A stretch of 63,678 bases of DNA, filler included, from Kipferlia bialata (Eukaryota): assembly GCA_003568945.1 (NCBI GenBank). It is 3 parts of 3 records of this genome, joined end to end, with 100 filler letters (N's around TTAATTAATTAA, not from the genome) between each part and the next. Parts side by side here need not be neighbours in the genome. Positions count along the whole stretch, not along the records: positions 1 to 24,520 come from BDIP01000224.1; 2 more parts are not named here. One strand, given 5' to 3'. Positions 57 through 53,750 of this stretch are shown here, piece after piece. The position numbers were made by a program, and so were the translations under genes. Every line of letters starts with the position of its first letter. Position 1 is the first letter of the stretch. The notes under the pieces are model-generated. The model had not been told where the DNA came from. It did no database searches and was given only the letters and a program-made list of their open reading frames with translations.

Positions 57-475
57 GGCATCATGCAGCCAGGGCAGGGCACAGGCCATGCACAGGTATA
101 GAGTGTATGTATATATTCATTGTGTATATATATAGTATGTATATATACATTGTATATATATATAGTATATGTGATTATGAATATGTATATGACCCCAGGC
201 TCAGGCAGAACCGAGAGGAGTCTCAGTCCTATGTATCCGTTCATATCTAATTTCCTTTTATATACTAACTCATAGGCTGAGGCAGAACCGAGAGGAGTGG
301 CAGTATTAGTGTTAGTAACTCTATATACACTAACCCCTCAGACTGAGGCAGAACCGAGAGGAGTTGAGGCTGACTGTGGCTGCAACTATACATATATATT
401 TATATATATATATATGTCTCTCTCTCTATATATATATGTATGTATTATATATATATATAATAGTATTGACCCCAG

Positions 476-1733
476 GCTGAGGCAGAACCGAGAGGAGTTG
501 AGGCTGACTGTGGCTGCACTGAAGCTGAGGGACAACCACGTCAAGGACCTGGGACACCATCTAGGTATACTATTACAGTATATATATATATATGTATATA
601 GATATGTATATATATGTGAGAAGGAGATTGAGGGACAACCACGTCAAGGACCTGGGGCATCACTTAGGTACATTATATACGTGCTTACAGTGTACACACA
701 TAATGTGAGGGAGGTAGATTGATGGACAACCACCTCAAGTACCTTGGGTATTATCTAGTCATTTCACTGTATGGGTATGGGTGTTGTGATAATATGGTAT
801 TTGTGTACCTTGTCCCACCCCAGGTGACATTGAGAGGCAGCTCAGGCAGTTCACAGTGCTCTACGACAAGGTATATACAGATGGGAGTATTAGATCTTTT
901 ACTCTTTGCTGTGTTTAGACTCGACATTCCTTCTCTCACTCTCTCACTCTCTCTCTCTCTCTTCTTCACTTACCCGTCAGGTCAAGAGCCAGCGCAACAA
1001 GTTCAACTCGTTGACACAGCAGGCAAAGCAGGTGTGGATACATCCTGTGACGTATTTATGGACATATACATATATATCAATGTTATCATTATGTATATGT
1101 CATATACATTAGACACAGCAGGCAAAGCAGGTATGAATACAAGTTCTATCATTGTATATATTTATTTGTATGTATGCTATGTTGATATGCGTCATATATA
1201 TTAGACACAGCAGGCCAAGCAGGTGGGAATACAACTCATATCGTTAGTTGTTTTTGATATATAGATATATGCTGAATTGAATCTCACCCTAGGCCATCCT
1301 AGAGACAGCTGAGAAGCTTGGCATCCTTGAGAACGAGGTGGCCTTACTGTCAGACGAGGCACTCAAGAAGGGGCACACCCTTAGCTCATTGACACAGGAG
1401 CGAGAGGTGTGTATGTACTGTTACAGTATTATGAATGCGTGTATTTTATCGTATGTGTATAATGAATACAATGTCTCTATATGTATCTCACCCCCCAAGA
1501 CATTGTGACTGAGCAATCAAGTTCTATGAATTACATACCATATACTATATATATACTATCGGTAGTATCTCACCCCAGGGCACTGTGACTGAGCAACCAA
1601 GTACTATGAATACACCACAATATTACATACTATTAAATACTATTGCGTGTAATACTGTTATAGTATCTCACCCCAGGGCATTGTGACTGAGTGCGATGCT
1701 CTGAGGCAGGATGTCGGGAAGAACACCCGGTAC

Positions 1734-1772
<39 letters not shown>

Positions 1773-4700
1773 CATAGACATACATGCAGTACACACGGTA
1801 CGTATGTATTATATTATATATTATATATTATATATATACTAATATATATATAAGTAATGAGAGATATGTATGTACAGCTGAGACAGGATGTCGGGAAGAA
1901 CACACGGTACGTATATATATATAAGTAATGAGAGATATGTATGTACAGCTGAGGCAGGATGTCGGGAAGAACACTCGGTACGGATACCCATAGACATACA
2001 TACAGCATGTATATATATACATTGATATATATGTATATACATCGATATATATGTATGTGCAGGATGTTGGGAAGAACACCCGGTACGTGTACCCATAGAC
2101 ATACATGCAGCATGTATATATATACATCGATAGATATATATACATCGATAGATATGTATGTGCAGGATGTCGGGAAGAACACTCGGTATGGACGCTAATA
2201 TACCTGTATCCCGCACTCTCAGTGTGCTGGAATAGAATGTCTCTCAGTACTTTTACATACATGTGAGAGTGAGTTACGGTTCTCTCTTGTAATCCTCACC
2301 CCCAGTGTGCTTGGTGAGAGTCACGAGCAGCTCAGGGCATGCATATCAGAGCTCGACAGACTCACAGGTATGTGGATATAGTATGTATATATTATAATGG
2401 TATATTATAGCATATATATGAATATATGGGAGGTGGATCTCAGGGCATGCATATCAGAGCTCGACAGGCTGACAGGTGTGTGGATATATATATAGAGGCT
2501 ATGCTCTGTCAGTCCTAGTTGCCCTTTCGTATCTCTCTCTCTCTCTCCCTCTACACCCTTATCCCAGGTGTCATTTCCTCCCTTGAGGAGGAGATCTCGT
2601 CGCTGAGGTCCCAGTACACAGGCAGCATCGAGGAGAGAAACTTCACAGGTGGGTAGAATTCCAGAATGCTGGCTTGAATAGTACATACTGTCGTATAGTT
2701 ACTGACATTAGGTCAGTGATTTGTAAATGAGTATATATATATTATTGTATATTTATATATAAATAAGTTTATTTATATTATTGTATATTTATTGGTTACT
2801 GACCCCAGGAGTGCAGTTGATCGATAGAAATGACGAGCTGGCAGTCTTGTATGAGCGTTTCAACGTTAGAGAGAAGGTGCTAAGAGAGAGTGACAGGCTA
2901 CTGGCGGACAGAGACCAGGTACGTCTACATGGTATTGGTATGGATTTATATACTGTATGTGTGTGATAGTTATAAGTCGCTATACTTGGTTGAACCTCAG
3001 GGAGCTCTCTCCCTCTCTCTCCCGTCCTCCCTCTATCCCCCCCCCCCTCTCTCACTCCTAGGACCTCCGTGTCCTGTCCATCCAGACCAAGGACCTGGAG
3101 AGGGCCATTGATGTGACTAGGTATATATAGAGTGTGTGTCAGATCACTAATGGATATATAGATGTGTATACTACTGTATATATAGATAGATGGAGAGTGC
3201 AGACCAGGGACCTGGAGAGGGCCATCGATGTTACTAGGTACAGCGGATATGTAATGAGAATGGTAGAGCAATCATTATAGGGGTCAATTTGTCAGTGTTC
3301 TTAACCCGTAGGAGGCCAGCCTCAAGGCAGACATAATTGTACTCTTCCATTTATAGTGTATACACTCTAATAGAGTGTATATATATACTAACAACCCAGG
3401 GAACAGGCTGCCGAGGCCTCCCATATATGAATATGTATACGTGTACCCTTTCGCTTATAAAGTGTATATACCATTAGTATGTATTCCTTACCCCTCAGGA
3501 GACAGGCTGCCGAGGCCTCGACCCTCAAGGCAGAGCACCAGGGACTGCTGGACGAGCTGGTGCAGGCCAAGGTATATATATATATAATATTACCCCTCTT
3601 TGAATAGAATATTCGGTAGTAGTCTCTGCATATTTCGTCAGTCTCTTGCATGCGAAGGTATAGGTTGAATACCCAAGAATACATACATACAACCCCCTCA
3701 TCCCCAGGAGGAGACCGAGAGGCTTGCCCACCGTGCCAGAGACACGGGCACAGAGAACAGGATGCTGCAGCTACCAGGTATGGGTATATATGCTATGTAG
3801 TTATGTCAGCATATCTATGCAGTATCTCTGTGTCCTATGACTCACCCCCCAGGCGAGCAGCCCGATCTGACCAAACTGGTGGAGAAGGCACAGGTATTTA
3901 ACATAAATATATGCATATTCAGTAGTAGTGGTATATATGTGTGTATGGGTATATAATCACTCACCCCCAGGACCTAGAGCAGAGGATCACAGACAAGAAG
4001 GAGGCATTCCTCGAGAGACAGGTATCTAACTGTGTATATATAGTTANNNNNNNNNNNNNNNNNNNNNNNNNNNNNNNNNNNNNNNNNNNNNNNNNNNNNN
4101 NNNNNNNNNNNNNNNNNNNNNNNNNNNNNNNNNNNNNNNNNNNNNNNATACACATGTATGGGTATCACGGACAAGAAGGAGGCATTCCTCGAGAGACAGG
4201 TACGATATGGGTATATATAGAGATGTATAGTTATATATATGGGAATATTGATAGATACTATATTATATATGTATTCGTATGTGTGTGTATCACGGACAAG
4301 AAGGAGGCATTCCTGGAGAGACAGGTATGTATATATGATCATATATACAGATGTATAGTTATATATATGGGAATATTGATAGATACTATTTTATATATGT
4401 ATATACACGTGTATGGGTATCACGGACAAGAAGGAGGCATTCCTAGAGAGACAGGTACTATTATATATACATATATACTTATACTAGCATATATATAGAT
4501 ATATATATATATGTATATGAGTGTATTATATATGTATATATACATATACCTGAATCACGGACAAGAAGGAGGCAATCCTGGAGAGACGGGTACGATACTA
4601 TATGGGTGTGTTTTACACATGAATATAGAATCATAGATACATATGTTTGTATCATATAGAAAGACAGGTAATGTTATTGTATCTTGTTGTTATGTATATG

Positions 4701-6280
4701 ATATATATATGTCCTCCATATATATTCCTGTCGCTGACCCCTCAGGTTGTGCTATTAATGAATCTTTAGATATATGTATCTACTCTGTCATATAACCACC
4801 CAGGTTGTGCTTGACGAGCTGGAGGCAGTGCTAGTAGTATATGATATATATGTATGATAAATATATAATGTTTATCAAATACCTGTTTTCTCTTTCCATT
4901 TCACCTCAGGTTGTGCTATTATTATTGAATCTTTAGTTATATGTGTCTACTTTATCATTTGACCTTCAGGTTGTGCTTGATGAGCTTGGCAAGCTGGAGG
5001 CTGATATAATATTGGATTTCTTATACCTATCCGTGCTCTATATATGGTATATATAGTATATGTAGATATATAGTATATCCTCTAACCACCCAGGTTGTGC
5101 TGGATGAGCTGGAGGCAGTGCTAGTAGTATATGATATATATGTATGATATATATATAATATATATCAAATACCTGTTTGCTCTATCCATTTAACCTTCAG
5201 GTTGTGCTGGATGAGCTCGGCAAGCTGGAGGCAGAGATCAGGAGCACCATCAAGGAGAGGAGACAGGATATGGAGCCAGTCAGGTACGGGACATATATAT
5301 ATGTATAGTATGTATACACATAAATGCAAAATGTATGTATGATGTACCATCAAGGAGAAGACAGGATATGGAGCCAGTGAGGTATGGTTCATAGTATATA
5401 TATGTTATGTGTATACATAGAGGTAAAATGTATGTATGATGTACCATCAAGGAGAGGAGACAGGATATGGAGCCAGTGAGGTATAATACACCCTCTCTCT
5501 TAATACAGTTCTCTCTCACTGCTACACTGCATTTCTATCTCTCCCCCTACACCCTTAATGTCAGGATGGCTGTTTCCAGACTCCAGGCCGCCCTGCACAA
5601 GAAGACCAAGCAGCTGCAGGTATTCTAAACACGCAAATAATATATATATATGCCCTATTTCCAATAGTAAGATGAATTGTCCTTTAGAAGACCAACTAAC
5701 ATATACAATACGAATATGCACTATTTACACATATACATTGAGTATTGTATACTATTTGTCGGACTGACTTCAGGCCCGTGTCTCTGAGACCTCCATGTTC
5801 CATGAGATGTATATATCATACATATATATATATATATATATATAGATGTGTGCCATATGTATACAATCTTTTACCACCAGGCCCTTGTCTCTGAGACCTC
5901 CATGTTCCAGATGATGACACTGGCACTGCACAGAGAGGGGGTATGTTCATATAGATAGACATTTGTATATATGAGTATATAGAGTTGTATATATATATAT
6001 ATTAATATGGATAGTTCCAGATGATGACACTGGCACTGCACAGAGAGGGGGTACGTGCATACACATACACACAGTTATATATCTATACTTACCTAGGACA
6101 CCCTGCGTGTCGTCCTCTATACTATCTATCTCTCTCTCTCCCTCTCTCTATATATATACCTATGTATACCCTTACCCCTAGGACACCCTGCGTGCCGAGG
6201 TGACTGAGCAGAGGGAGAGGTTTGAGGATGGCCTACCACCCACAGACGAGGCAGAGCAGGAGTGGCTCAGGATGGAGCAG
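476..6280 (+). CDS. CCDC146: CCDC146/MBO2-like ciliary coiled-coil protein, partial multi-exon gene
   Basis: Manually spliced GT-AG exons 476-564, 824-870, 981-1031, 1293-1406, 1677-1729, 2306-2367, 2568-2648, 2809-2918, 3062-3120, 3499-3571, 3708-3777, 3853-3893, 3971-4021, 5201-5283, 5565-5619, 5881-5940, 6182-6280 keep frame. Motifs LYDKVKSQRNKF, RNFTGVQLIDRNDELAVLYER, RMLQLPGEQP, ALVSETSM and GLPPTDEAEQEWLR resemble CCDC146/MBO2 from recall; paralog CFAP58 lacks the GLPP..E.EW tail. 5' end is outside the window; 3' end is cut at the polyC/G junction. Confidence 0.8.
4165..5120 (+). repeat. Intronic array of exon-edge echoes (5 donor-side, 5 acceptor-side)
   Basis: Copies of the end of exon 3971-4021 with GT at 4200, 4325, 4455, 4590, 4667. 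Copies of AG plus the start of exon 5201 at 4745, 4803, 4909, 4969, 5093. Confidence 0.9.
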
Positions 6281-6566
6281 GTACATACATATAGAGTGTA
6301 TATAGTAGACATGTGGATAGTATACATAGGTGTATAGTATAAATAGTATATAGAGTGTTTATATGTGGCTCAGGATGGAGCAGGTATATATAGAGAGAGT
6401 ACATACATATATAGTATATATAGAGTCTATCCGTACATAGTATATAGTATTCATGTGTATGTACATATTTATATATATCCTCTAACCCCAGACCCGCCTC
6501 GATGCCATCAGACAGCAGGCATCTATTGTTTGTATAAATACATGTTTACATTTATACATATACCAT

Positions 6567-7231: not shown

Positions 7232-10200
7232 CTGGGAGAGTGTCGATATGAACTATCCACACCTAGGACCTTGCTGCCGATGGGTGTGCCGACCAGGACC
7301 TTGGAGAAGTAGGACTGCACAACCTGGGGGTGGGGTATCAGGAATGAGGCCAGAGCTACTATAACATAGTACATCAAATTCATACATATATGGTAGCCGC
7401 ATATTATACCTGGTTTCTGGCCATCTCACTGAAGAAGAAGATGAGACCCAGGAAGGCCAGGATGCCTCTGGGGTGGGGGAGAAGGCAACATTGATAGGGA
7501 CATACTTAATAGATGAAAGAGAGAGAGAGATATCTGAGGGAGAGTGCGATTGAGAGAGTGTACTCACCCACAGACCAGGACCGATGACCAGAAGGTCTCC
7601 TCGGCATCTGCCATCTCAACTGGCCTGGGGGTAGAACTAGATTGGTGTCGGCAAGAGACAATACACACAGAATAGGGAGAGAGAGAGAGAGAGGGGGGGG
7701 GGGGGGGGGGAAAATGATAAAAAAATTTATCAGTATCAGTACCAATAATATTATATATAGTAATGGGGTAGATACATCCTATCCAGACATACTTATACCT
7801 AGGTAGTGCCTGGTATGCCCTCTCGTTGGCCTCTCTCTGGGTGGGTGCCCTGCCTAGGTCAGAGCACAGGCCGTGCAGAGACATCGAGGAACGGACCTGG
7901 GGGTGAGGGGGTATTCACTTACATACAGTACTATCCCAATATACACTATATAGTAGCATGAGTTGTCGTACCCACTTCTGACCGGACAGCTTCTGCTGGT
8001 CTGGCCCGTATGCATCCACAATGACACCCCTGCTAGGCCATGCCACAGAGTAGAAGGCAGCATCGACCAGGTCCTGGGTCAGCCCACCCTGGTCCCGTCT
8101 GCCTCTGCCCTGGGTGTCGGGTGCCCTTGCTCTGAACATGTACGCAGCCAAGGGGCCATAGATGGGGCCCTCGAGGTGGTTGTTGCTGGGGTCAGTAATG
8201 TATTGCCCCACCATAAGAGATAATATGTACTATATATATATATATAATACACTTAAAAGAATGGTAACCCCACCTCGTGGCTCTCTGCAGCTGGGAGTAC
8301 TGCTGTTCCAGCCGACTACCCTTGTCGGGGTGGTTGCGCAGGAACAGGGGGATGTTGAACCCACTCCTTTCTACACGGTGGCGCTCCTAGGGGTTGGGGA
8401 ACTACACGGATGTGGATTACGATAGAAATAGCTACCACACATAAAACAGAGTGTAAAGTATAATATGAATACTCATACTCACCTGGCTGTACTGCTTGTT
8501 GGCATTGGCCAGCTGGTTCTTCAAGTGGGATATCTCTGCCCTGTCTGGGCCAGGCCCTAGTGCCTTCCTCTGTTCACCTGCCTCAGCAAGGTCACGCTTG
8601 GCCCTCGACAGCTGGGGGTGAGATAGGGAGTATACACATGTATACATGTATACATATATACATGTAAGTGGGGAGAGAGAGAGAGCGAGAGAGTACGGAG
8701 CCCCTGCTAACCTTGTCCTCGAGAGTGATGATGTCTCTCTTGGCTGCCTTCTGCTCCTGCACCCTCTTCTCCCTCCTCCTCCTCCGTGCCTCTCTGGCCT
8801 CCTCGGCATCTGCCTCCATCCTCTCAATCATCCGCCTATCCTTGACTATGGTCATGGCCCCATCCCTGATGGTCCTGACCGTGTCTGCGACATCTCCCAT
8901 GGTCGAGTCAACCATCGTCTCAGACTGCACGTGGCGGTCTGGGGTCATGAAGACAAGGCTGCTGGACTCATGGGGATATATGTACGGAGACATTAGTATA
9001 TGTATACATCCACCAACTGTACCTCTCATCTCCCTGAGCTCCCCCTGGATAGTCTGGTACTCATGCTTGGCATCGGCCAGAAGGTCATGGGCCTGGGGTG
9101 AGGAGAGAATAGTATATCAGTATCGGTATATATATCGTATATATAGGTACATCGGCCAGAAGCTCATGAGCCTGGGGTGAGGGTTGTATTCAAAAGGAAG
9201 AAGGAGCATCACAACCTAGAGATAGAAAGACTAGACTGTAAGTATCCCACCTCCTGTCTGCTTGCCCTGACTGCCTCAGCCTTGGCCTCTGTATAAATAT
9301 CTATCAATATCTATATACCTATCTATATCTTACATATATCTATATACATATCTACCCCACCTCCTATCTGCTTGCCCTGACTGCATCTGTCATAACAATA
9401 TCAGTACCAGTATCTCATATGTGTCCTATAAGAGATAAGATACTAGACTGTACCTCCTGTCTGTTTGCCCTGACTGCCTCAGCCTTGGCCTCTGCATCTG
9501 CCTCACTCTTAGACGCACTGATCACATTTAGCCACGAGGTGGCCTGGGGGTGAGGGGGTGAGGGGGGAAAGGGGGGGGGGGGATGGGAGAGAGGTACCAT
9601 AACTACCATCACACTCCATACCCTTGAGAGTCTCTGCATCTTCTCGATGTTGTTGTCTCTGGAGGCCAGTCTCTCCTTGATGGCCTGCATCCTAGGGGGT
9701 TAGGCAGGGTACTATATTGTGATGTAGCTTGAATACAGTGTATATAGTGTGTGTGTCTACATATATCCCACTCACATGACCAGCTTCTTGTGCTGTGCCT
9801 CTGCCTCTGCCTTGTGGCTGCAGACCTCTGCCCTCATCTGGTTCACCCTCTCTTGCTCCTTCTGCATGTCTTTGAGTCTGGCCTTCAGCTGGGGGTCTGC
9901 AGAGTCCAGCAGGTGGCTCAGACGGTCGGGGTCCTGGGGGGTTAGATGACGCTGTACAATGTAATGGATATACACTAATTCATGCCTTCATCGTGGCCAG
10001 CTGCTGTGCCCCGTCCTGTTCCATGATGGCAAAGGGGTTGGTGATCTGGATGCGGAGCTGCTCCCTACACGTGAGAATAGGTGGGGGGGGGGGTACGTAT
10101 CATAAACAGCAATTAGTGAATGGGGTCACACCTAAACTGTCTGAAAAGTGGCTCCTGCTTGATGGGAATCCATCGGCAGCCTCTGTATGTACCGGTTGCG

Positions 10201-11289
10201 GGGTCGTACTCCTGTGGGTGAGGAAGGGCAGCATAATACATAACACATGCGCAAACTAATACACACCTGAGTCCATGACCCATCGTGCCCTATCAGCTGG
10301 TCCTCCACCCCAGACGTTTGCCTCATCTTGCCCCTGCTACTCAGCACATGGTACTGGGTCTTGAGAGAGGCAGCGCTGGGGGTGAGGCGGGTACTGGGGA
10401 ATTCGGAAACATTAGTATACAATACCCAATGATATATTGATCAGGGAGAGAGTGTGGCGAGGCCACAGAGCAGACAGGGTAGTGCATAATAGAGTCATTG
10501 ACAGTGTGTGATTAATGACAGAATGTGAGAGTCATGCTGAAACCCAGTATACTGATAAGTACATACGTACGTTTGTGGCCCCTTGGTAGTCTTCCTAGTG
10601 ATGACCCTTCTGAAGGTGGAGACAATGGGACCCACGACCCCCTCCGGCTGCCTCTTCACAACCACGTCCACCTCAATCCAGGCTGGGGGGTGAGTGAAGG
10701 GATAGAGTCAATGGGCACCACTATATACCCACCACCCCTACCTTCCTTCTTGATCCCCCTGATGATGGAGGCCATGCCCTTCTTCTCCCGCCTGTCCCCA
10801 AAGGCCACCAGGATGGACGTCATCAGCGTGGACTTGCCTGTCCCGTTGGGGCCTGGGGTAAGGCAAGAGAGAGAGAGTGGTATGTGGTGTTTCCATATAC
10901 AGGTGAAGAGAGCACCTTACACAACCCCATGCATCAGAGAGTGTGCAATAATAACATAGATGCTACATACCTGTGAAGTAGTTCACATATGGGTGGCAGT
11001 TGATCTCCAGGTCAGCCAGGCCCATGACGTTGTGCACCTGGGTATCAGTAAGGGATAGACATCAGACGGCATTCAGTGCTCTAATACGCACCCATGCAGC
11101 CACCATACATCAGTCCCCACCCCTCCATGTCTACCTGCGCCCCCCTACCTTGATCCTCATGATGTGGCCTGGGTGGTACACATGGCCGTACCGCTGCCTC
11201 AGGTAGTCCGCGTCATTGGTCAGGGGGTCGGGGAACACACCGCCCTCCTGCCCCTGCTCCTCTCTGGTAAACCTGTCGGTGTCAGACAT
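6775..11289 (-). CDS. SMC5/SMC6-like ATPase, N-terminal head, coiled coil and hinge (3' half missing)
   Basis: Spliced: MSDTDRF...PGHIMRIK|VHNVMGLADLEINCHPYVNYFT|GPNGTGKSTLMTSILVAFG (Walker A). Q-loop region LRIQITNPFAIMEQD, long coiled-coil exons, and hinge-like GPIYGPLAAYM. Walker B and signature motif are not present before the junction at about 6610. Confidence 0.75.
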
Positions 11290-11534
11290 GCCCCTATGGC
11301 CAGCACTGGCGTCCCCCTGCTCGCACCAGATGCAGATAAAGACAGACTCTTCTATTGAGTGCTGATGTGGGTGTTTTTGCGATAAATATCTACACCCTCA
11401 TCATGTTACCAAATAGCCAACTTCATAGGCGTGCTGCACAGGCCTGGACAGTCTAGGGTTACCACTACTGTCGTGAATTGGTTTGTTAGCCTGTGTTCAC
11501 TGAGCTGGGAGTTTTTCGGCTCTCTCAGTGAACA
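11290..11534. promoter_or_regulatory. Short divergent intergenic region, putative bidirectional promoter
   Basis: About 245 nt between head-to-head ATGs at 11289 (-) and 11535 (+). Positional inference only. Confidence 0.35.
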
Positions 11535-17480: not shown

Positions 17481-17532
17481 TATATGTGCCATGGTTGGCT
17501 GCCTTATATATGTGCCATGGTTGGCTGCCTTA
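17481..17532. repeat. Perfect 26-bp tandem duplication (TATATGTGCCATGGTTGGCTGCCTTA x2)
   Basis: Read directly: 17481-17506 equals 17507-17532; intergenic. Confidence 0.9.
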
Positions 17533-17556
17533 TATTATTATCATCCTTGGTAGACC

Positions 17557-20634: not shown

Positions 20635-21040
20635 GCCGTCTGAACCCTTTCAACGTATGGGAGTCCAGCTGTCTTGTCGTATACTTGATGCCAGTTATCC
20701 GTCTGTCTTTTCTGTATTTCTTTGTTAGCCCCATAAATATGTTTCGTCAGACTTGGTTCTAGGCTAGTATGGGTACGATTAGGTATTGGAGACGTCAGTT
20801 ACTTCATATATACTATTCACCTACTCTTGAAACTTCCAACCACATACTAATACACTACAGTTTATCCTCTGATATGCCCCTCTAATTGGGGGTACCCACC
20901 AACCTAAACATCAGTTGGGGGGTCTCAAACACGAGTCTCTCTCTCTCTCTCTGACTCTCTCCTTCCTATACAATCACACTCCCACACATCGTGAATATCG
21001 AAACCTCTCTCTCTCTCTGTGTGTCTACACAACCAATCTC

Positions 21041-21258
21041 CTAGACCTGATCCTCTGCGTCTAGCAGTATGTCCATGTTGAAGTGGACTCCCAGGTCACG
21101 CTTGGATCCCTAGAGATAAGGGGGAGGGGGGGGAGAGAGAGAGAGAGAGAGAGAGAGAGATACACAAATTTTACACGCACTCTCTCAATATACAGATACA
21201 CATCACATGTACTTGAGGTGATGAATACCATGCCTCCTGGTCACCATCTTGATCTTGA

Positions 21259-21290
<32 letters not shown>

Positions 21291-23858
21291 AATATATATA
21301 CTCATAGTACCTGAGGTGATGAGTACCCTGCCTCCTGGTCACTGTCCTAATCACTCTCTCTCTCTCTATATATATTTATATATATTAATATACATACTCA
21401 TAGTACCTGAGGTGATGAGTACCCTGCCTCCTGGTCACTGTCCCCATCGCTATCTCTCTCTCTGCATATATATATATTAATACACATACTCATATTACCT
21501 GAGGGCTAGAGTACCCTGCCTCCTGGTCACTGTCCCCATCACACACACTCTCTCTCTCTATATATATACACACACACACATATATATGTATATACATGTA
21601 TATACCTGTGGCGATGAGTACGCTGCCTCCTGGTCACTGTCCCCATCACTCTCATGCTCATCATCAGTGTCGGGGGGACCACCTAGATGTTAGGGTATAC
21701 ACAAATGTATCTACGCACACATGCAGACTTACATATTCCACTCAAGTGTTATGGTTGAAGAAACATATATATAAGGAAACAATAACAGGTCTATGTCACA
21801 CTGGTTACATACTAAATGTACTCCTAACCTGCCACCACCGTGAGTGCCTGCAGCACCCTGTCTCTCTCTGCCCTGTCGGCAAAGGCTAGGAGGTACCTGG
21901 GATAAGACAAACCCGAATTGAATAAAAAGTAAAGTACATATGTATCAATACAAATCTAACCCCAAAGACCCAAACACATACTATCTCTGTACATAACTCC
22001 AAATAACGCAAATCATACCTCTTAGCGTTGAACACCCTGAGTGTTCCAAACTCTATGCCATAGGGCTGGGACCCATCGATGTCGGTGGCCTGGGGGTGAG
22101 GGGCAGAATACTATGATTGTGATTGACAGCTGTATGTTTACTATCATGCATCGATATACAATATTGAGTATAAGTATATATATTAGACAGAGAGATAGAG
22201 AATTTATATATCCGAACCTTTGGGTCATCGATCTCTGATACCAGGACCATGTAGAGCTCTGAGGCACTGCCGCCCTGGGGGTTAGTGGTAATACACGAAT
22301 AGTATATATATACAAATAGACAATATATCTACAAATATAGTACTATAACAGTATAACTGTAGAGCTCAGAGGCACTGCCGCCCTGAGGGGTCAGTGGCAA
22401 CACGAAAGCCATAAGATAGTGTGTATCAGGATCACTGACTCAGATACCACAAGTAAGTCCATATATACATATGTGTGCACTGCACCATACCTTGTATGCC
22501 GTCTCACTCTTGAACCACCTGAGACAGTCAGACGACAGCACAAAGAACCTGGGGGTGAGGGGAGGGGGGGAGAGAGATATATGATGAGAGACAGAGAGAG
22601 AGAGAGAGAGAGGGAGAGAGTGAGGACATATATCCACACACCTGCTCTGGAAGTGCTTCACCATCTTCCCCCCCATCTTGCCCGCACTGAAGGAGGTGAT
22701 GACAGACACGCCGTCGGTGCTCTGTCTACAGGGTGAGGGGGAAACATACATACACACTACCATGTAATATATATACGTATACTCATAATGAAAGAGGAGA
22801 GACATATTCTAATAGTAAGGTGGATACATATGCATGTTAGGCCCCCCAATGTCACCCACCTCAGCTCATTCTTGGGCACTGCCTTGGGGATGAAGGCAGG
22901 GACCTGGGGGTAGGGTATAATGGATGGATACACTTATATATATACATATATATATGAGAGGGTTGGGGATGAAGGCAGGGACCTGGGGTGGGAAATGGAA
23001 GATGTAGAGAGTAATATATATTGTAAGAGAGAAACCTAGGATACACATACACCACCCCATACCTCTGTGCGCGATGGGGAAGGTGTGAGGTTGGTTGAGT
23101 GGGGGAAACGGACGGAGGACTCTTGTACAACGCCCTGGGGGTGAGATATGGAATCATAATGTATATATGAATATACATATAGTCTACAGCTAGTATCAGT
23201 GCCTTAGCCAGTGACTCGTCCATCCTGGCCAGCACCGAGGACAGGGACACGTATATACACTTCACATAATGGTATATATATACATACTTTTGCTAGGCTC
23301 TCGTCCAGCCTGGCCAGCACAGTTATTGAGGACAGGGACAAGTATATATACAAGAGGACACAATGTATAATACACTTATATACCTTAGCCAGTGACTCGT
23401 CTAGTCTGGCCAGCACTGTGACAGACGACAGGGACATATACATAGAGTATACTATAGTATCAATATCTATATATTCTATACCTTAGCGAGACTCTCGTCT
23501 AGTCTGGCCAGCACTGTGACAGATGATAGGGACAGGTGCTTCTTGAAGGCAGGGCCTGGGTAAGGAGAAAGAGTGGGAGAGGGAGAGGGAGAGACAGAAC
23601 GCTGTGTCACATTGTGTACATACCCTGTGTATGTCCATCTCATACTGGTTAGACCACTCATATATACACACATATACACACACACACATATATATGTGTG
23701 TGTATGTCCATTCACACACTGTATCCTGCCATACCCTGTATGTGAATATCCATCTCATACTGGTTGGTCACCAGCTGACACTTGACACTGGGCTTCAGCT
23801 GGGAGGGACGCTTGACTACAATGGGGACCCTGGGGGTGAGAGTCTCTCTCTCTCAACA

Positions 23859-23892
<34 letters not shown>

Positions 23893-24030
23893 TACATATA
23901 CATAACGTACCTCACCACCGATCTGGACCCTGCCCTGACCTTGACATCCACACTACCCCTGCCCACACACCGCTTGAAGGTCCTGGGGGTGAGAAGAGGA
24001 GAATAATACTCATCTAGAAACTATGTACAT

Positions 24031-24063
<33 letters not shown>

Positions 24064-24510
24064 GGAGTAGATCCGCACTGCCCCTGCCCACACACCACTT
24101 GAAGGTCCTGGGGGGTGAGGTATGATGTTGCAAAGAGATAGGTAGTAACATATTCATAAATATGTAGAGTAGTCCACACCTACTCATCTTGTCTGCATGC
24201 ACTGTGGTTGATTATTCTCTCTCTCTCTCCATACACACATATATATACACCCTATACATTCATACATATCCCACCCACCTACTCATCTTGTCTGCATGCA
24301 CTGTGGCTGATCTCTCTCTCTCTCTCTCTATCTCTCCATATATAAATACATCCTACCCACCTACTCATCTTGTCTGCATGCACTGTGGTTGATCTCTACT
24401 CCCCCTCTCTCTCTCTCTCTCCATAAACACACACACACATATATATACCCTATATACTCATACACATCCCACCCACCTGCTCATCTTGTCTGCATGCACT
24501 GTGGTTGATC
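21041..24510 (-). CDS. PH-domain protein, 3' part
   Basis: AGKMGGKMVKHFQSR|FFVLSSDCLRWFKSETAYK and RYLLAFAD fit the PH beta1-beta3 and beta7 pattern. Last exon GSKRDLGVHFNMDILLDAEDQV*. 5' end is cut by the scaffold end. Confidence 0.65.
23203..23436 (-). repeat. Three intronic recoded echoes of the end of exon 23482-23555
   Basis: 23384-23436, 23288-23341 and 23203-23250 all translate to variants of LSLSSVTVLARLDESLAK followed by a GT or GC donor. Confidence 0.9.
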
Positions 24511-24520
24511 TCTCTCTCTC

Positions 24521-24620
24521 NNNNNNNNNNNNNNNNNNNNNNNNNNNNNNNNNNNNNNNNNNNNTTAATTAATTAANNNNNNNNNNNNNNNNNNNNNNNN
24601 NNNNNNNNNNNNNNNNNNNN
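24521..24620. other. Artificial scaffold spacer (N-TTAATTAATTAA-N)
   Basis: TTAATTAATTAA at 24566-24577 inside Ns, giving stops in all six frames. Confidence 0.95.
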
Positions 24621-30703: not shown

Positions 30704-31156
30704 ATGGGGGACCAGATCCGCAGGGCCACAGTCGATGACCTCCCTGCCTTGCAGGCCCTGGCCCGGCGTGTGATAGACGGGTGTTACCGGGGCTTCCTAG
30801 GGGACGAGGGGGTGGACTGGTACATTGGGAGTGGGGAGTCTGACAGGGAGGTTGCCAAGCACATCGACAGCACCGACGTCCTGGTGCGTGAGGGGACTGT
30901 TCTGGGACTGGTAGTGTGTCTGGATGACCTAGTCCACTTGCTGATGGTGGATGTGCATGCCCAGAGGTCAGGGGCCGGCACCCTCCTGCTCACCCATGCC
31001 ACCGACAAGATGTTCCAGGCAGGCAAGGGTGTCATACACGTGGAGACGTTCAAAGGCAATGATAGGGCAATTGCGTTCTATACAAAGAACAACTGGACAC
31101 AGGTTCAGAGGACAGGAGGGGAGGAAGAGAGGGTGTTCTTCGAAAAGAGGAGATAG
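30704..31156 (+). CDS. GNAT-family N-acetyltransferase, intronless
   Basis: IRRATVDDLPAL N-terminal motif, acetyl-CoA motif A LMVDVHAQRSGAGTLLL, motif B NDRAIAFYTKNNW; 150 aa from ATG 30704. Confidence 0.9.
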   Translation: MGDQIRRATVDDLPALQALARRVIDGCYRGFLGDEGVDWYIGSGESDREVAKHIDSTDVLVREGTVLGLVVCLDDLVHLLMVDVHAQRSGAGTLLLTHATDKMFQAGKGVIHVETFKGNDRAIAFYTKNNWTQVQRTGGEEERVFFEKRR

Positions 31157-43901: not shown

Positions 43902-46900
43902 ATGAGGACTGTGTGCACGAGTATATCTATGTATGTGTGTTTGTGAATGAAGGAGCCGGGATATGATCTCATAGTATACCACGTATGGGGTTATATAGTC
44001 GTATATATATAGTTCATTCCATTATAATTACCCAGTGGGTCTCTTCCTCGCCATACCTCAAGTGTTTACACTGTGTTTCCTTCTAGATATGATTGATCTG
44101 ACGCAGGTTACTTGTCAGTCCGAGTCTCACCTCTTGAACCCTTTTGTCACTACTTTTTGTACCTGAACCCTTATTCTGTTTTTGTATCATTGCTCTTTTC
44201 ATTTTTCTCTCACTCTCAGGCACTTGCCACCAGCGTCCCCTTCGGAGAGTCCACCTACTACTCTGCCTATAGCGGGGCTGGTACAGGGTACGCTGCGTCC
44301 ATTGCCACCACAAGCAACGGCTTTGATGTACTTGCTGTGGGGGGTCCCTCTGACGACACCAACGATGAGGATGCCGGGGCTGTGTACTACTATCTCAAGG
44401 TACCTATGTATGCATACATATAGTTATATTGTATACTGCATGTATTCTCTCTCACCCTCAAGGACGCCCAGGGTGCCTGGTATGACGAGCCCTCTGCAAT
44501 GTCAGCCTGTCCCAGGTATGTGATATAGCCTAGAGTGTATAGTATATAGGATATAGGTACCAGTGATGATATTGCTACACTAGTACACCCATCTGACCCT
44601 CAGGTATGCTGACGGACAGCGCTTCTTCGGTGTGTCTGTCGCTGCTGATGGGGAGTGGATAGCCGTGGGGTCCCAGGGTACCTCTGTCGCCAACCGCTAT
44701 GGAGCTGTGGACATATACTATCATGAGGTTAGTATGGACACACTACTATATAGAGTGGATGGGGGGGAGCTGTCACACTGTTGTACTCTGAGTATCCATC
44801 ACTGACCCCCAGGCTAACTCCGGCTCTGACTTCTACATCTGGAAGCAGACCCTGACCGCCGAGAACGACGTCACCGACGCCACGGAGTCCAACTTTGGAG
44901 TGCATGTCGAGATGGACTCTGGACGCATCGCTGTGTCCAGCTACCTAGAGACCACCGACGGCACTGTACAGTTCGGCTCAGTTTACGTCTACTCCTACTC
45001 TGGTGATCCTACACAAGTGGGGGGGTGGGACCTGGAGGATACACTCTGGGATGATGTAACCTTGTTTAACAGGGCTGCCTTCTTTGACAAGTTCCACTTT
45101 GGATACTCCATATGCCTCAGTGCGGACACGCTGTATGTCACGACTGGCTACACTGGGGTATGTTGAGAACATACTCAAATATATACTGCATCTCTGCATA
45201 TGTCCACATACTCACCAATAATACTATGTATCAATGTTTACTTACAGAGTCTGCTATATTGTAGGAATATGTCCATCTACTCACCCCAGGGATGGGCTGA
45301 CAACCTCACAGTCTATGACCGTGAGTCCAATGGGACATGGACTAGATACGCAGGGTATCAGATAGTAGCCAAGGTGGGTGTCACATTATACCTATGCATG
45401 GATATGTTGATTTGTAACTCTGCCCTATTGTGTTAATGTGTATCAAGTTGTGGCCAAGGTGGGTGTCACATTACATATATGCATGGATATGTTGATTAAA
45501 TAGTTGGAGAGTGTCAGTATATCATATGCGTAGGTATATATATAGTACCTCTGCCCTATTATGCTGCTTATCAGGTCGTGGCCAAGGTGGGTGTCATACT
45601 TCATATGTATATATAGTGTATATATAGTCATTATGCAGTTCAAGAGTAACAGTAAGGTATATGTGTGGGTGTGGGTATATACTTCTATACAGTGAACTAT
45701 CTTTGTGCCTCTCACCCCAGACTGTGGCCACCTCCAGCTTCTCTCGATTCAACCTCGTGGTCCGTGGCTCTGGAGACACTGTATCCCTATACTCAGAGGA
45801 TGATACCGACAATGTGTACACACTAGACATATCATCGACCTCGGATCTGGACCACCTTGACACTCTCTCTCTGGCCGACACCACCGAGGGTGGCATTGCC
45901 AGCCTGGCCTACTCCTCCGACACAATAGTGATCGGCACCGCCAACAACTACGCGATGATCTACTCCGTCTCCACCGCTGGCGAGCTCTCTCCAACCTCCA
46001 CCATCAGCGGAGGTAACGGGTTTGGCGGCTGTGTGGCTACCATCGACGGGGACAGGGCTGTGGTAGGAGGTGCGCCTGTGACAGGGGCTAGCGGGGTGTA
46101 CATGCTCAATGCCGGCGAGAGTGATTCCTCTCTCTCTGCCGTGCCTGCAGGTGTCCTCACCTCTGCCGGCGAGTCCTCCCCCACCCCTGTCACTGTGGGT
46201 GTGGTTGATGTTGGGGACAGCCCAGTGGCAGGTGCACTAGTGGATATCTCCTTCGATGGTGCCCTCTACACCTTCTCCGAGAGTGGCGGATCCTACGCCA
46301 ACACGGTTCCCCTCTCCGCTAGGGGCGGAGACTCCCTCGATCTGGTGCTATACCTGTGCCCAGAGGCCGTGACTGGTTCCTATCCCATCACACACACTCT
46401 CTGTCCTGTCCTAGAGACACAGACTGTATTTGTCACATACACTGCCACTTCAGCAGTGACTGTACCCGCTATGGTGTCTGACACTGTGGTGGACGTCACT
46501 GTATATGACCAGAACGGCATCAAGATCACTGACCCGGCTGCTACTGTCACACTCACTCCCTCTGGTGGTAGCGCAGCTGCCTGTACCCTAGACACCTACT
46601 ATGGTACATACGGGTGCCGGACGGGCTCAAACACAGAGGGATACATCACCGCCTCTCTCTCTGTGACACCTGCCTCTGCTGGTACAGTCACTGTCCCCAC
46701 CTCTCTCTCTGTCTACTCAGAAGGCACTCCCTTCTCTAGGGCAGTTGATCTGGATGTAGGAGGGACAATGCCCTACTTCAATACCGCAGTGGGCGCCACT
46801 GGAGAGGGTGATGGTTACTACGAGTTTGTCTCTATTGATGGCGACTGGATGGTGGTAGGGCAGCCCGATGAGAATATCGGTGGAGTGGAGAAGGCGGGTC

Positions 46901-49121: not shown

Positions 49122-49221
49122 NNNNNNNNNNNNNNNNNNNNNNNNNNNNNNNNNNNNNNNNNNNNTTAATTAATTAANNNNNNNNNNNNNNNNNNNNNNN
49201 NNNNNNNNNNNNNNNNNNNNN
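49122..49221. other. Artificial scaffold spacer (N-TTAATTAATTAA-N)
   Basis: TTAATTAATTAA at 49166-49177 inside Ns. Confidence 0.95.
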
Positions 49222-52546: not shown

Positions 52547-53750
52547 ATGGCTGGAGGAGTGTCACAGTGTCTATGTGTCTCTACTATGGGATGCAGACTA
52601 TGTAGCATGTGCCAATATCGATCATAGGCATGATTACATTCTCTATATATCTATACTGTCTCTCTCTCTCACTTCCCTTTAACAGCAGAGTATCGCTCAC
52701 TGTAATCCATGTTCCCAAGCCGAAACCCCACAACATGTGTGTGATATACACCCTATCGGATGGGGGTGTTGTAGAGGAGACTGAGGTTGAGTGTCCCCTA
52801 GATGGAGTGACCGGGTACTCCCTCTGTACTGTGGGAGGGTGTGTATATCTGTTTGGGGGGGTGAGGAAGGGTGACACCCGCAAAAAGACCTCTCCCAAAC
52901 TACATGTCTATCACATGGACACTCAAGAGTGGACGGTGGTGTCTAAGGGTAGTAAAGACAGAGGGGGGCCTGGGACAAGGGCCAAGGAGAGAAGTGTATG
53001 GCCCCCCTCCGTCCACTTCCACTCTGCTGTGATGACAGGATGGTGGTGGTGGGTGGACTGAGGCAGACAGGGCCTGTGGGTTCACCCCCTACATGCACCC
53101 CCTCTGCCAATGCGTATGACCCTAACACCTCTCTGTGGGTGCAGTTGGAGGATGCCCCAGTGGCACTGCATAGTATGAACATAGTGGGGGAGGGGGGGAT
53201 GGTGCACATACTGGGGGGCAGAACCAGTGGTGACACAGGGGATTCAGTGTCGCACACCCATATGTCATTCACGGCTCGGCCTGGGGGTGACAGGTGGGGG
53301 GATGGGTGCTGGAGACATGAGGGGGAGTGTCCCTATGGGTCTGCTCTGCTGTTCATGGGGGTGCAGGGGTATGCTCTATTCTCACAGGGTACCAGTGTAT
53401 ACACCTTTGACCTTGTGTCCCAAGAGGCCCTCTCTCTATGGCAGGGCATCCCCTCAGCCATAGGCACCCCATCCGGGGGGGTGGCTGACTTCACAGATGA
53501 GAAGGTCACCTCAAGTTGTCATCACAGTGTTATTATTAATACGATGATTTCTTCGTTACCAGCCATACCTATTTCACCTATTATATCCTCTATGTATCCT
53601 ACCTAACCCCCTCTGACCCAGTACATGCTGTGGTCTGCCACTGGCTTCTGGGTTGTCTCCGTCAACCCTGCCCTCCTCACACCCTGTGCCAGGTATGAGG
53701 CATCGGCTCCAGCAGCCACACCCAGACTGTGGACGGGTAGGCATCTTTAG
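52547..53750 (+). CDS. Kelch-repeat protein with apparent frameshift near 53030
   Basis: GYSLCTVGGCVYLFGG, YHMDTQEW, WPPSVHFHSA / CDDRMVVVGG, AYDPNTSLWVQL, MVHILGG. The two halves are in different frames with no intron between them. Confidence 0.65.

Follow-up and report, generated by a model that had tools for sequence, protein, structure and literature searches.

Tandem exon duplication can give rise to mutually exclusive exons, which have both splice sites and reach the mRNA. In intron gain by tandem duplication, a new intron arises that runs from the first GT to the second AG. The exon copies found in introns of the free-living flagellate Kipferlia bialata resemble mutually exclusive exons in being exon-like intronic paralogues with silent-biased divergence, but they have a single splice site and are skipped. 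Reports on intron gain by tandem duplication describe splicing that tolerates duplicated splice signals (PMC3265369, PMC2891723), as is the case here. In layout, the nearest relatives are splice-junction minisatellites such as the 37-bp VNTR in intron 7 of human F7, with further examples in 6-16, CBS, LMNB2 and PDGF (PMC1557585). In these, as in Kipferlia, the first unit crosses the exon-intron boundary, the units run head-to-tail into the intron, and the most upstream donor is used. The original prediction that no such system had been described was therefore wrong with regard to layout. As described in that source, minisatellites of the F7 type are single loci of 5–25 units, with identical splice sites in F7, whereas in Kipferlia 37 of 160 introns or gene flanks hold 1–4 copies each. 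The Kipferlia copies also differ in lying on both donor and acceptor sides, in having diverged spacers and in their silent-biased differences. The units of the array studied most closely here have an ungapped identity of 61–75%, unlike the near-identical monomers of F7-type minisatellites, and their spacers are 17–21% substituted, plus gaps.

Two other systems are comparable in mechanism. In one-sided invasion/SDSA, described for plant gene targeting (PMC9299229), a single break end copies a homologous template, as we propose for the founding junction of the arrays; a standing intronic archive of allele pieces is absent from the portions of that source consulted. In the hyperdiverse Schizophyllum commune, synonymous diversity reaches up to 0.20 (PMC4576712) and crossovers favor exons between parents that are 14% diverged (PMC4209137). 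By analogy, recombination may be similarly focused on conserved exon sequence in Kipferlia, although the S. commune crossovers are in register between sequenced parents, and the consulted sections of that report do not mention intronic duplicates. In the literature searched, with subscription papers outside its scope, we found neither this copy pattern in Kipferlia or genome-wide, nor a match to the combination of density, two-sided symmetry and allele-like divergence. The consulted parts of the K. bialata genome paper mention only the number of introns, with the string ‘duplicat’ absent, and those of PMC8226300 and PMC6679479 contain nothing on such copies.

We searched for copies across the window, i.e. 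the whole ~64-kb stretch of DNA that was analyzed, by comparing each exon end with the flanking introns using nucleotide-only scores over 160 introns or gene flanks in 19 gene models. The models were obtained with a hidden-Markov-style predictor, with short copies mistaken for exons removed manually and an RNA check in one gene, and one model retains an internal stop. A protein that is 100% identical to a long exon of the window carries the name Kipferlia bialata in its source. The final setting yielded 63 copies in 42 families, such that about a quarter of the examined introns carry copies of the adjoining exon end or start. Control searches with unrelated exon-intron pairs gave no matches in 1086, 1095 and 1076 trials. 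Copies in downstream introns consist of the exon end followed by GT, which is kept in 35 of 38 donor-side copies, while those in upstream introns consist of AG followed by the exon start, with the AG kept in 21 of 25 acceptor-side copies. Sides of wrong polarity numbered zero at a strict setting and seven at loose ones. The pattern noted originally is window-wide, and the acceptor-side mirror copies, half of the phenomenon, had been overlooked.

The exon part of the copies measures 15–56 nt. Unlike intron gain, no new intron is created; an existing intron is lengthened, with a median interval length of 255 nt where a copy is present and 89 nt where it is not. A copy is present in 28 of the 36 intervals longer than 180 nt. 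Among 59 near-tandem repeat matches in complex sequence, 49 overlap a listed copy and four an exon; the other six look junction- or exon-derived by eye, with the low-complexity filter concealing intron-only repeats. The copies are unevenly distributed, with 29 of them around the 17 modeled exons of a CFAP58-like coiled-coil gene (199..6383, plus strand), 11 in the gene of the focal array described below, and none in 10 of the 19 models. One exon of the former gene matches the Pfam family CFAP58_CC with an E-value of 7e-4, a match that falls short of the curated cut-off. Some copies have decayed: three contain stops, one has a 2-nt deletion, and one has five amino-acid changes and has lost its GT. 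Acceptor copies have also undergone a higher-order duplication at 4740–5240 (plus strand), where 4777–4917 and 5067–5208 are 89% identical over 142 nt. At 45355–45596 (plus strand), two older donor copies encode YQVVAK where the exon encodes YQIVAK, with differing codons; they score under the final threshold and lie outside the pooled count.

The focal array lies within 23063–23555 on the minus strand. Its working exon of 74 nt (23482..23555) is supported by the gene model and by record 9 of the RNA contigs (X2), in which 23481–23554 is joined to 23133. The last 18 codons of this exon (23482–23535), which we call unit U1, read LSLSSVTVLARLDESLAK. All three copies lie inside a GT..AG intron of 347 nt (23135..23481) that is removed whole, as seen in the RNA joint 23133–23481 (CT..AC on the plus strand), and the RNA depth is zero in the bins at 23199–23440 across them. 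The first spacer (23437..23481) holds the donor in use and a TA-rich intron start, and its second codon is a stop. It is followed by copy U2 (23384..23436), in which four codons are changed relative to U1, all synonymously and one by a Ser AGT>TCA switch, and which is again followed by GT. Spacer 2 (23342..23383), an idle GT donor and intron start, differs from spacer 1 by substitution at six of 36 aligned bases and also by gaps. Copy U3 (23288..23341), also followed by GT, has 12 codons changed (13 nt), of which 11 are synonymous and one is a conservative V>I change. Spacer 3 (23251..23287), by alignment another idle GT donor with an intron start, leads to copy U4 (23203..23250), which has GC instead of GT at the donor position, a 6-nt in-frame deletion and an L>M change; its 5′ part resembles U3 and its 3′ part resembles U2. 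The remaining intron (23135..23202) contains the sole acceptor (…CACCCCCAG), and the next exon follows at 23063..23134 (RNA contig piece 23061–23133).

The units are arranged head-to-tail at spacings of 98, 96 and 85 nt, the copies correspond to the last 16–18 codons of the upstream exon, and U1–U4 share one start point in the exon. No acceptor precedes the focal copies. The codon counts originally given for U2 and U3 proved exact when re-read codon by codon, and U4 had been left undescribed. When 13 random changes were dropped on U1, none of 300,000 trials gave one amino-acid change or fewer. Under a null in which the working copy changes only silently and the spare copy is neutral, P is 7e-4 for U3 and 0.01 for U2, values that represent a hand-picked best case.

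Contig evidence from RNA and DNA covers 20900–24500, with the CFAP58-like gene outside this range. Record 5 of the short-read DNA contigs (X1) spans 22628–23560 with no differences and a depth of 451, the other listed pieces having depths of 385–486; two repeat pieces of 48–50 nt have depths of 478 and 953. Because the longest exact repeat between focal copies is 30 nt, with no shared 31-mers, the path through the array is unambiguous at a word length of 31 (Logan). The predicted tandem layout is therefore real as far as short reads show, with one DNA contig crossing the array at a depth like that of its flanks. X1 is not independent evidence, since it may be the source sample of the window assembly. 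No other letters are listed in the DNA contigs over 20900–24500, contigs being a form in which variants and rare forms are dropped; this is as expected for a haploid or clonal strain, and a relative is predicted to be haploid (PMC8516963). That X2 is an RNA run is our guess, backed by eight CT..AC joints. Eight introns are confirmed by these joints, every one in the focal gene, and the RNA contig bypasses the copies in its copy-bearing introns. In the focal intron splicing takes the most upstream donor, and the copies are absent from the RNA contigs, in which rare forms are lost. The intron is thus spliced as one unit from the first donor to the sole acceptor, without the new intron that marks intron gain. 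These results support the earlier claim that the copies are untranslated at present; only seven of the 63 have a splice site whose use would leave the frame open.

Another exon end of the same gene has four donor-side copies at 21213..21552 (minus strand), where record 9 jumps from 21605 to 21108, and one of these holds a second Ser class switch (TCA/AGC). Acceptor-side copies of the focal gene, consisting of AG and exon start within the upstream intron, are found at 22358..22382, 22963–22982 and 24071–24107 on the minus strand and are bypassed by the RNA joints 22273–22490, 22901–23061 and 23981–24179. At 24180–24520 (minus strand), four donor-side copies without an acceptor lie next to an assembly gap, in which their working exon probably sits. 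An RNA joint falls on the last of these copies with just 24 letters on that side; if really used, this copy would violate the first-donor rule. A 151-nt contig of the RNA run at 24074–24204, with a depth of 7.4 compared with 74.1 for the spliced form, reads through an intron and its acceptor copy, and may represent unspliced RNA, DNA, or a spare acceptor in use. The focal gene may encode a PH domain, a label given by eye; scanning six of its exons one by one against Pfam gave no significant family.

We then compared copies with exons at 0-fold and 4-fold degenerate sites. The original prediction had set the neutral expectation for this comparison at ~1; the correct ratio is 0.5 or more, because the working copy also collects silent changes. 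Pooled over the window, copies differ from exons at 64 of 1226 0-fold and 69 of 299 4-fold sites, a ratio of 0.23 (family bootstrap 95% interval 0.15–0.35), with a pN/pS of 0.25 (0.16–0.42). Neutral duplicates simulated with the same detection and trimming (six settings of 150 runs, 900 in total) gave medians of 0.51–0.55 and a minimum of 0.26, so the pooled divergence exceeds plain neutral duplicates in its silent bias, as had been claimed. Without the focal family the pooled ratio is 0.25. A stricter setting gave 0.24 (0.15–0.42), and a looser one, with untrimmed ends and one gene misframed, gave 0.35 (0.23–0.55). Acceptor-side copies show a weaker signal, with a pN/pS of 0.43. Between copies that are both intronic, for which neutrality predicts ~1, the differences are 17/207 and 18/48, a ratio of 0.22, with 4 of the 17 0-fold differences being positions in the two Ser class switches. 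The ratio called for in the original prediction thus falls under 0.5 in this window, but most of the signal comes from two genes with ratios of 0.10 (the CFAP58-like gene) and 0.20, and the other seven copy-bearing genes pool to 0.42. This last value has P = 0.3 against 0.5, and a single copy per family gives 0.33–0.34 (P = 0.04–0.06), binomial values that assume independent sites where sites within a family are dependent. Base or CpG bias was rejected as a cause: 0-fold divergence is 0.047–0.055 for each base, and outside CpG-prone contexts the two values are 0.052 and 0.172.

Each unit comprises an exon end and an intron start, and is homologous as a whole. Similarity that ends abruptly at the splice site was rejected, since entire spacers align; over their full length they show 9–26% substitutions plus gaps, in alignments that low-complexity sequence inflates. 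This divergence is near the 4-fold figure of 0.23 and far over the 0-fold figure of 0.05. With 55 of the 63 copies compared over 30 nt of intron, the 11 whose exon part is perfect all show differences in the intron part. The four copies of the focal array carry AGA+AGT, AGA+TCA, AGG+AGC and AGG+TCA, which are all four Arg/Ser combinations and therefore imply recombination or repeated change. Six sites show three states, five at 4-fold and one at 2-fold positions, and the differences within the focal array are non-nested. The array is accordingly recombinant, as claimed, its copies being mosaics with a four-gamete pattern. In seven of the 12 families with multiple copies, the starts of all copies lie no more than 3 nt from one point; in four families this holds for some copies, and in one for none. 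The seven with a shared start suggest a single founding junction that unequal exchange then multiplied, which makes the single break per copy of the original prediction unlikely. Repair templated by mRNA was rejected, as what follows the exon part in the copies is intron sequence and not the next exon. Between genes, at 17490–17545, a perfect tandem repeat of ~27 nt is visible by eye, and duplications thus also arise away from splice sites.

We see about an even chance that the copies descend from alleles of one exon that had diverged strongly and were united by out-of-register recombination. A break in an exon would be repaired with a homologue, from which one end would copy the exon end with the start of the intron before being rejoined out of register by alternative end joining; an offset crossover would do likewise. 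Survivors would be the products in which the extra piece is hidden in an intron, giving the strict polarity of exon end plus GT downstream and AG plus exon start upstream. Copies of an existing array could then pair with another allele's working exon, the exon being the best match between diverged alleles, and arrays would expand from one junction, with decay outpaced by the uptake of sequence from working alleles. What separates a copy from the present exon would thus be mostly silent allelic polymorphism. For both sides to have borne protein selection, the hidden copy would have spent most of the divergence time as a working exon. By our own derivation, the ratio does not drop below 0.5 if a copy is converted by the working exon of the same cell, and allelic source sequence can take it lower. 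If the 0-fold value of 0.05 is taken as the neutral share, then ~0.13 of the 4-fold divergence is allelic, and silent diversity between isolates is predicted to be roughly 0.13–0.2 or more. The whole-unit homologues, silent-biased exon parts and recombinant mosaics found here are those expected of the proposed allele archive.

The known repair genes are consistent with this allelic origin. Ku70-Ku80 are missing from metamonads and Rad51A from Fornicata, and Supplementary Data 2 of the same source lists Spo11, four Dmc1 entries and PolQ for K. bialata, with Ku70 and PARP1-3 unlisted (PMC8516963). Dmc1 is able to recombine mismatched sequences (PMC11514202). A kit of Spo11, Dmc1 and PolQ without Ku70 is consistent with homologous invasion and subsequent alternative end joining, in line with the one-sided repair of the original prediction. 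We count against an allelic origin that sex is unobserved in metamonads (PMC8516963), that the DNA contigs list no other letters and that the signal below 0.5 comes from two genes.

The main rival is plain tandem duplication of a splice junction, as in F7. The spare copy would then be neutral and the working copy would take silent changes, with shared history within a few arrays, alignment trimming and picking behind the low ratio. It holds this place because seven of the nine copy-bearing genes, with their pooled ratio of 0.42, are compatible with it; human F7 has the same layout and likewise uses its first donor, and certain copies are clearly decayed by stops, a 2-nt deletion or loss of GT. 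We nevertheless consider it unlikely, as the same-pipeline simulations never fell below 0.26, the copy-versus-copy ratio is 0.22, and two Ser class switches together with a four-gamete mosaic are unexpected under neutral decay.

The low copy-versus-copy ratio, the mosaics and the retained GT and AG would also fit second-order selection, in which collapse of the tandem moves the spare copy into the exon and so purges harmful changes from it. Single-strand annealing has been inferred to be available in metamonads (PMC8516963). Such purging would, by our reckoning, require a product of Ne and collapse rate of ~1 or more, and 20% silent divergence would require arrays lasting ~0.1/mu generations. 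The two go together only with a population diversity of ~0.2 or more, so that this explanation merges with an allelic origin. Stop-bearing copies also persist, and in its own right we regard this selection as improbable.

A similarly small probability applies to error-prone duplication, where a mutagenic polymerase makes the exon-proximal unit, silent outcomes survive, and the copy is the unaltered old end, with no need for allelic diversity. PolQ is present and Ku70 absent, and the process would yield ratios below 0.5 and diverged spacers. Copy density per gene follows the TATA content of its copy-free introns (rho 0.57, P 0.014, 18 models), and TA-rich regions are possibly break-prone. Against this, many rounds would be needed for 12 of 18 codons to change silently or conservatively, or for a Ser codon to switch at three bases, and successive rounds predict nested differences where those of the focal array are non-nested.

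Ordinary purifying selection on copies that are translated now, through alternative or non-canonical splicing, is very improbable. The 6-16 and CBS repeats of human use downstream pseudo-donors at a low level (PMC1557585), and the 151-nt unspliced piece at 24074–24204 could be a trace of such use, given that contigs lose rare forms. In Kipferlia, however, none of the 38 donor copies has an acceptor-like motif within 15 nt upstream, only the seven open copies could be read through, spacer 1 stops at its second codon, and the RNA contig of the focal gene bypasses the copies; present-day translation is unlikely for these reasons. An assembly artefact, with haplotypes of a mixed or heterozygous culture fused in tandem, has the least to recommend it and is scarcely credible: the published draft of the species is a short-read SPAdes assembly, all the reads are short and X1 may be the source sample of the window, but a single contig runs over all junctions at full depth with zero differences, the copies have no 31-mer in common, and the polarity is strict.

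The wider proposal is that alleles are archived across the whole genome, in tens of thousands of introns, through homologous recombination of hyperdiverged haplotypes in an organism whose lineage lacks both Ku-dependent end joining and Rad51; to this we assign somewhat less than an even chance. If true, a single genome would preserve traces of former outcrossing and of the diversity of its population, in a group for which there is no observation of sex. The chief route of intron growth in Kipferlia would be junction duplication, and the archive process would shape intron length, with copies in 28 of the 36 longest intervals (>180 nt). The arrays are natural competition assays, in which a reduced spliceosome takes the first donor and the last acceptor. 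The copies also mislead gene finders, our first gene models having taken them for exons.

Several other features of the window were noted. Gap markers of 100 nt, N runs around a 12-nt palindromic linker, lie at 24521–24620 and 49122–49221, and gene order across them is uncertain. Exons of an SMC5/6-like N-terminal ATPase occur at 7800–11350 (minus strand), with Pfam matches to AAA_23 and SMC_N under the cut-off; the model runs into an internal stop near 9980, and either it lacks an exon or the gene is split. A gene that looks kelch-like by eye (52708–53504, plus strand) changes frame near 53040–53058 without an obvious intron, and a homologue search with a kelch-like exon returned nothing at E 0.001 among 67 candidates. 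An intron-less gene at 30704–31156 (plus strand) looks GNAT-like by eye. A metagenome scan with it gave one locus out of 113 pattern matches, 53% identical and on a 3.7-kb contig that lacks Kipferlia intron motifs, and lateral transfer of this gene from a prokaryote is possible.
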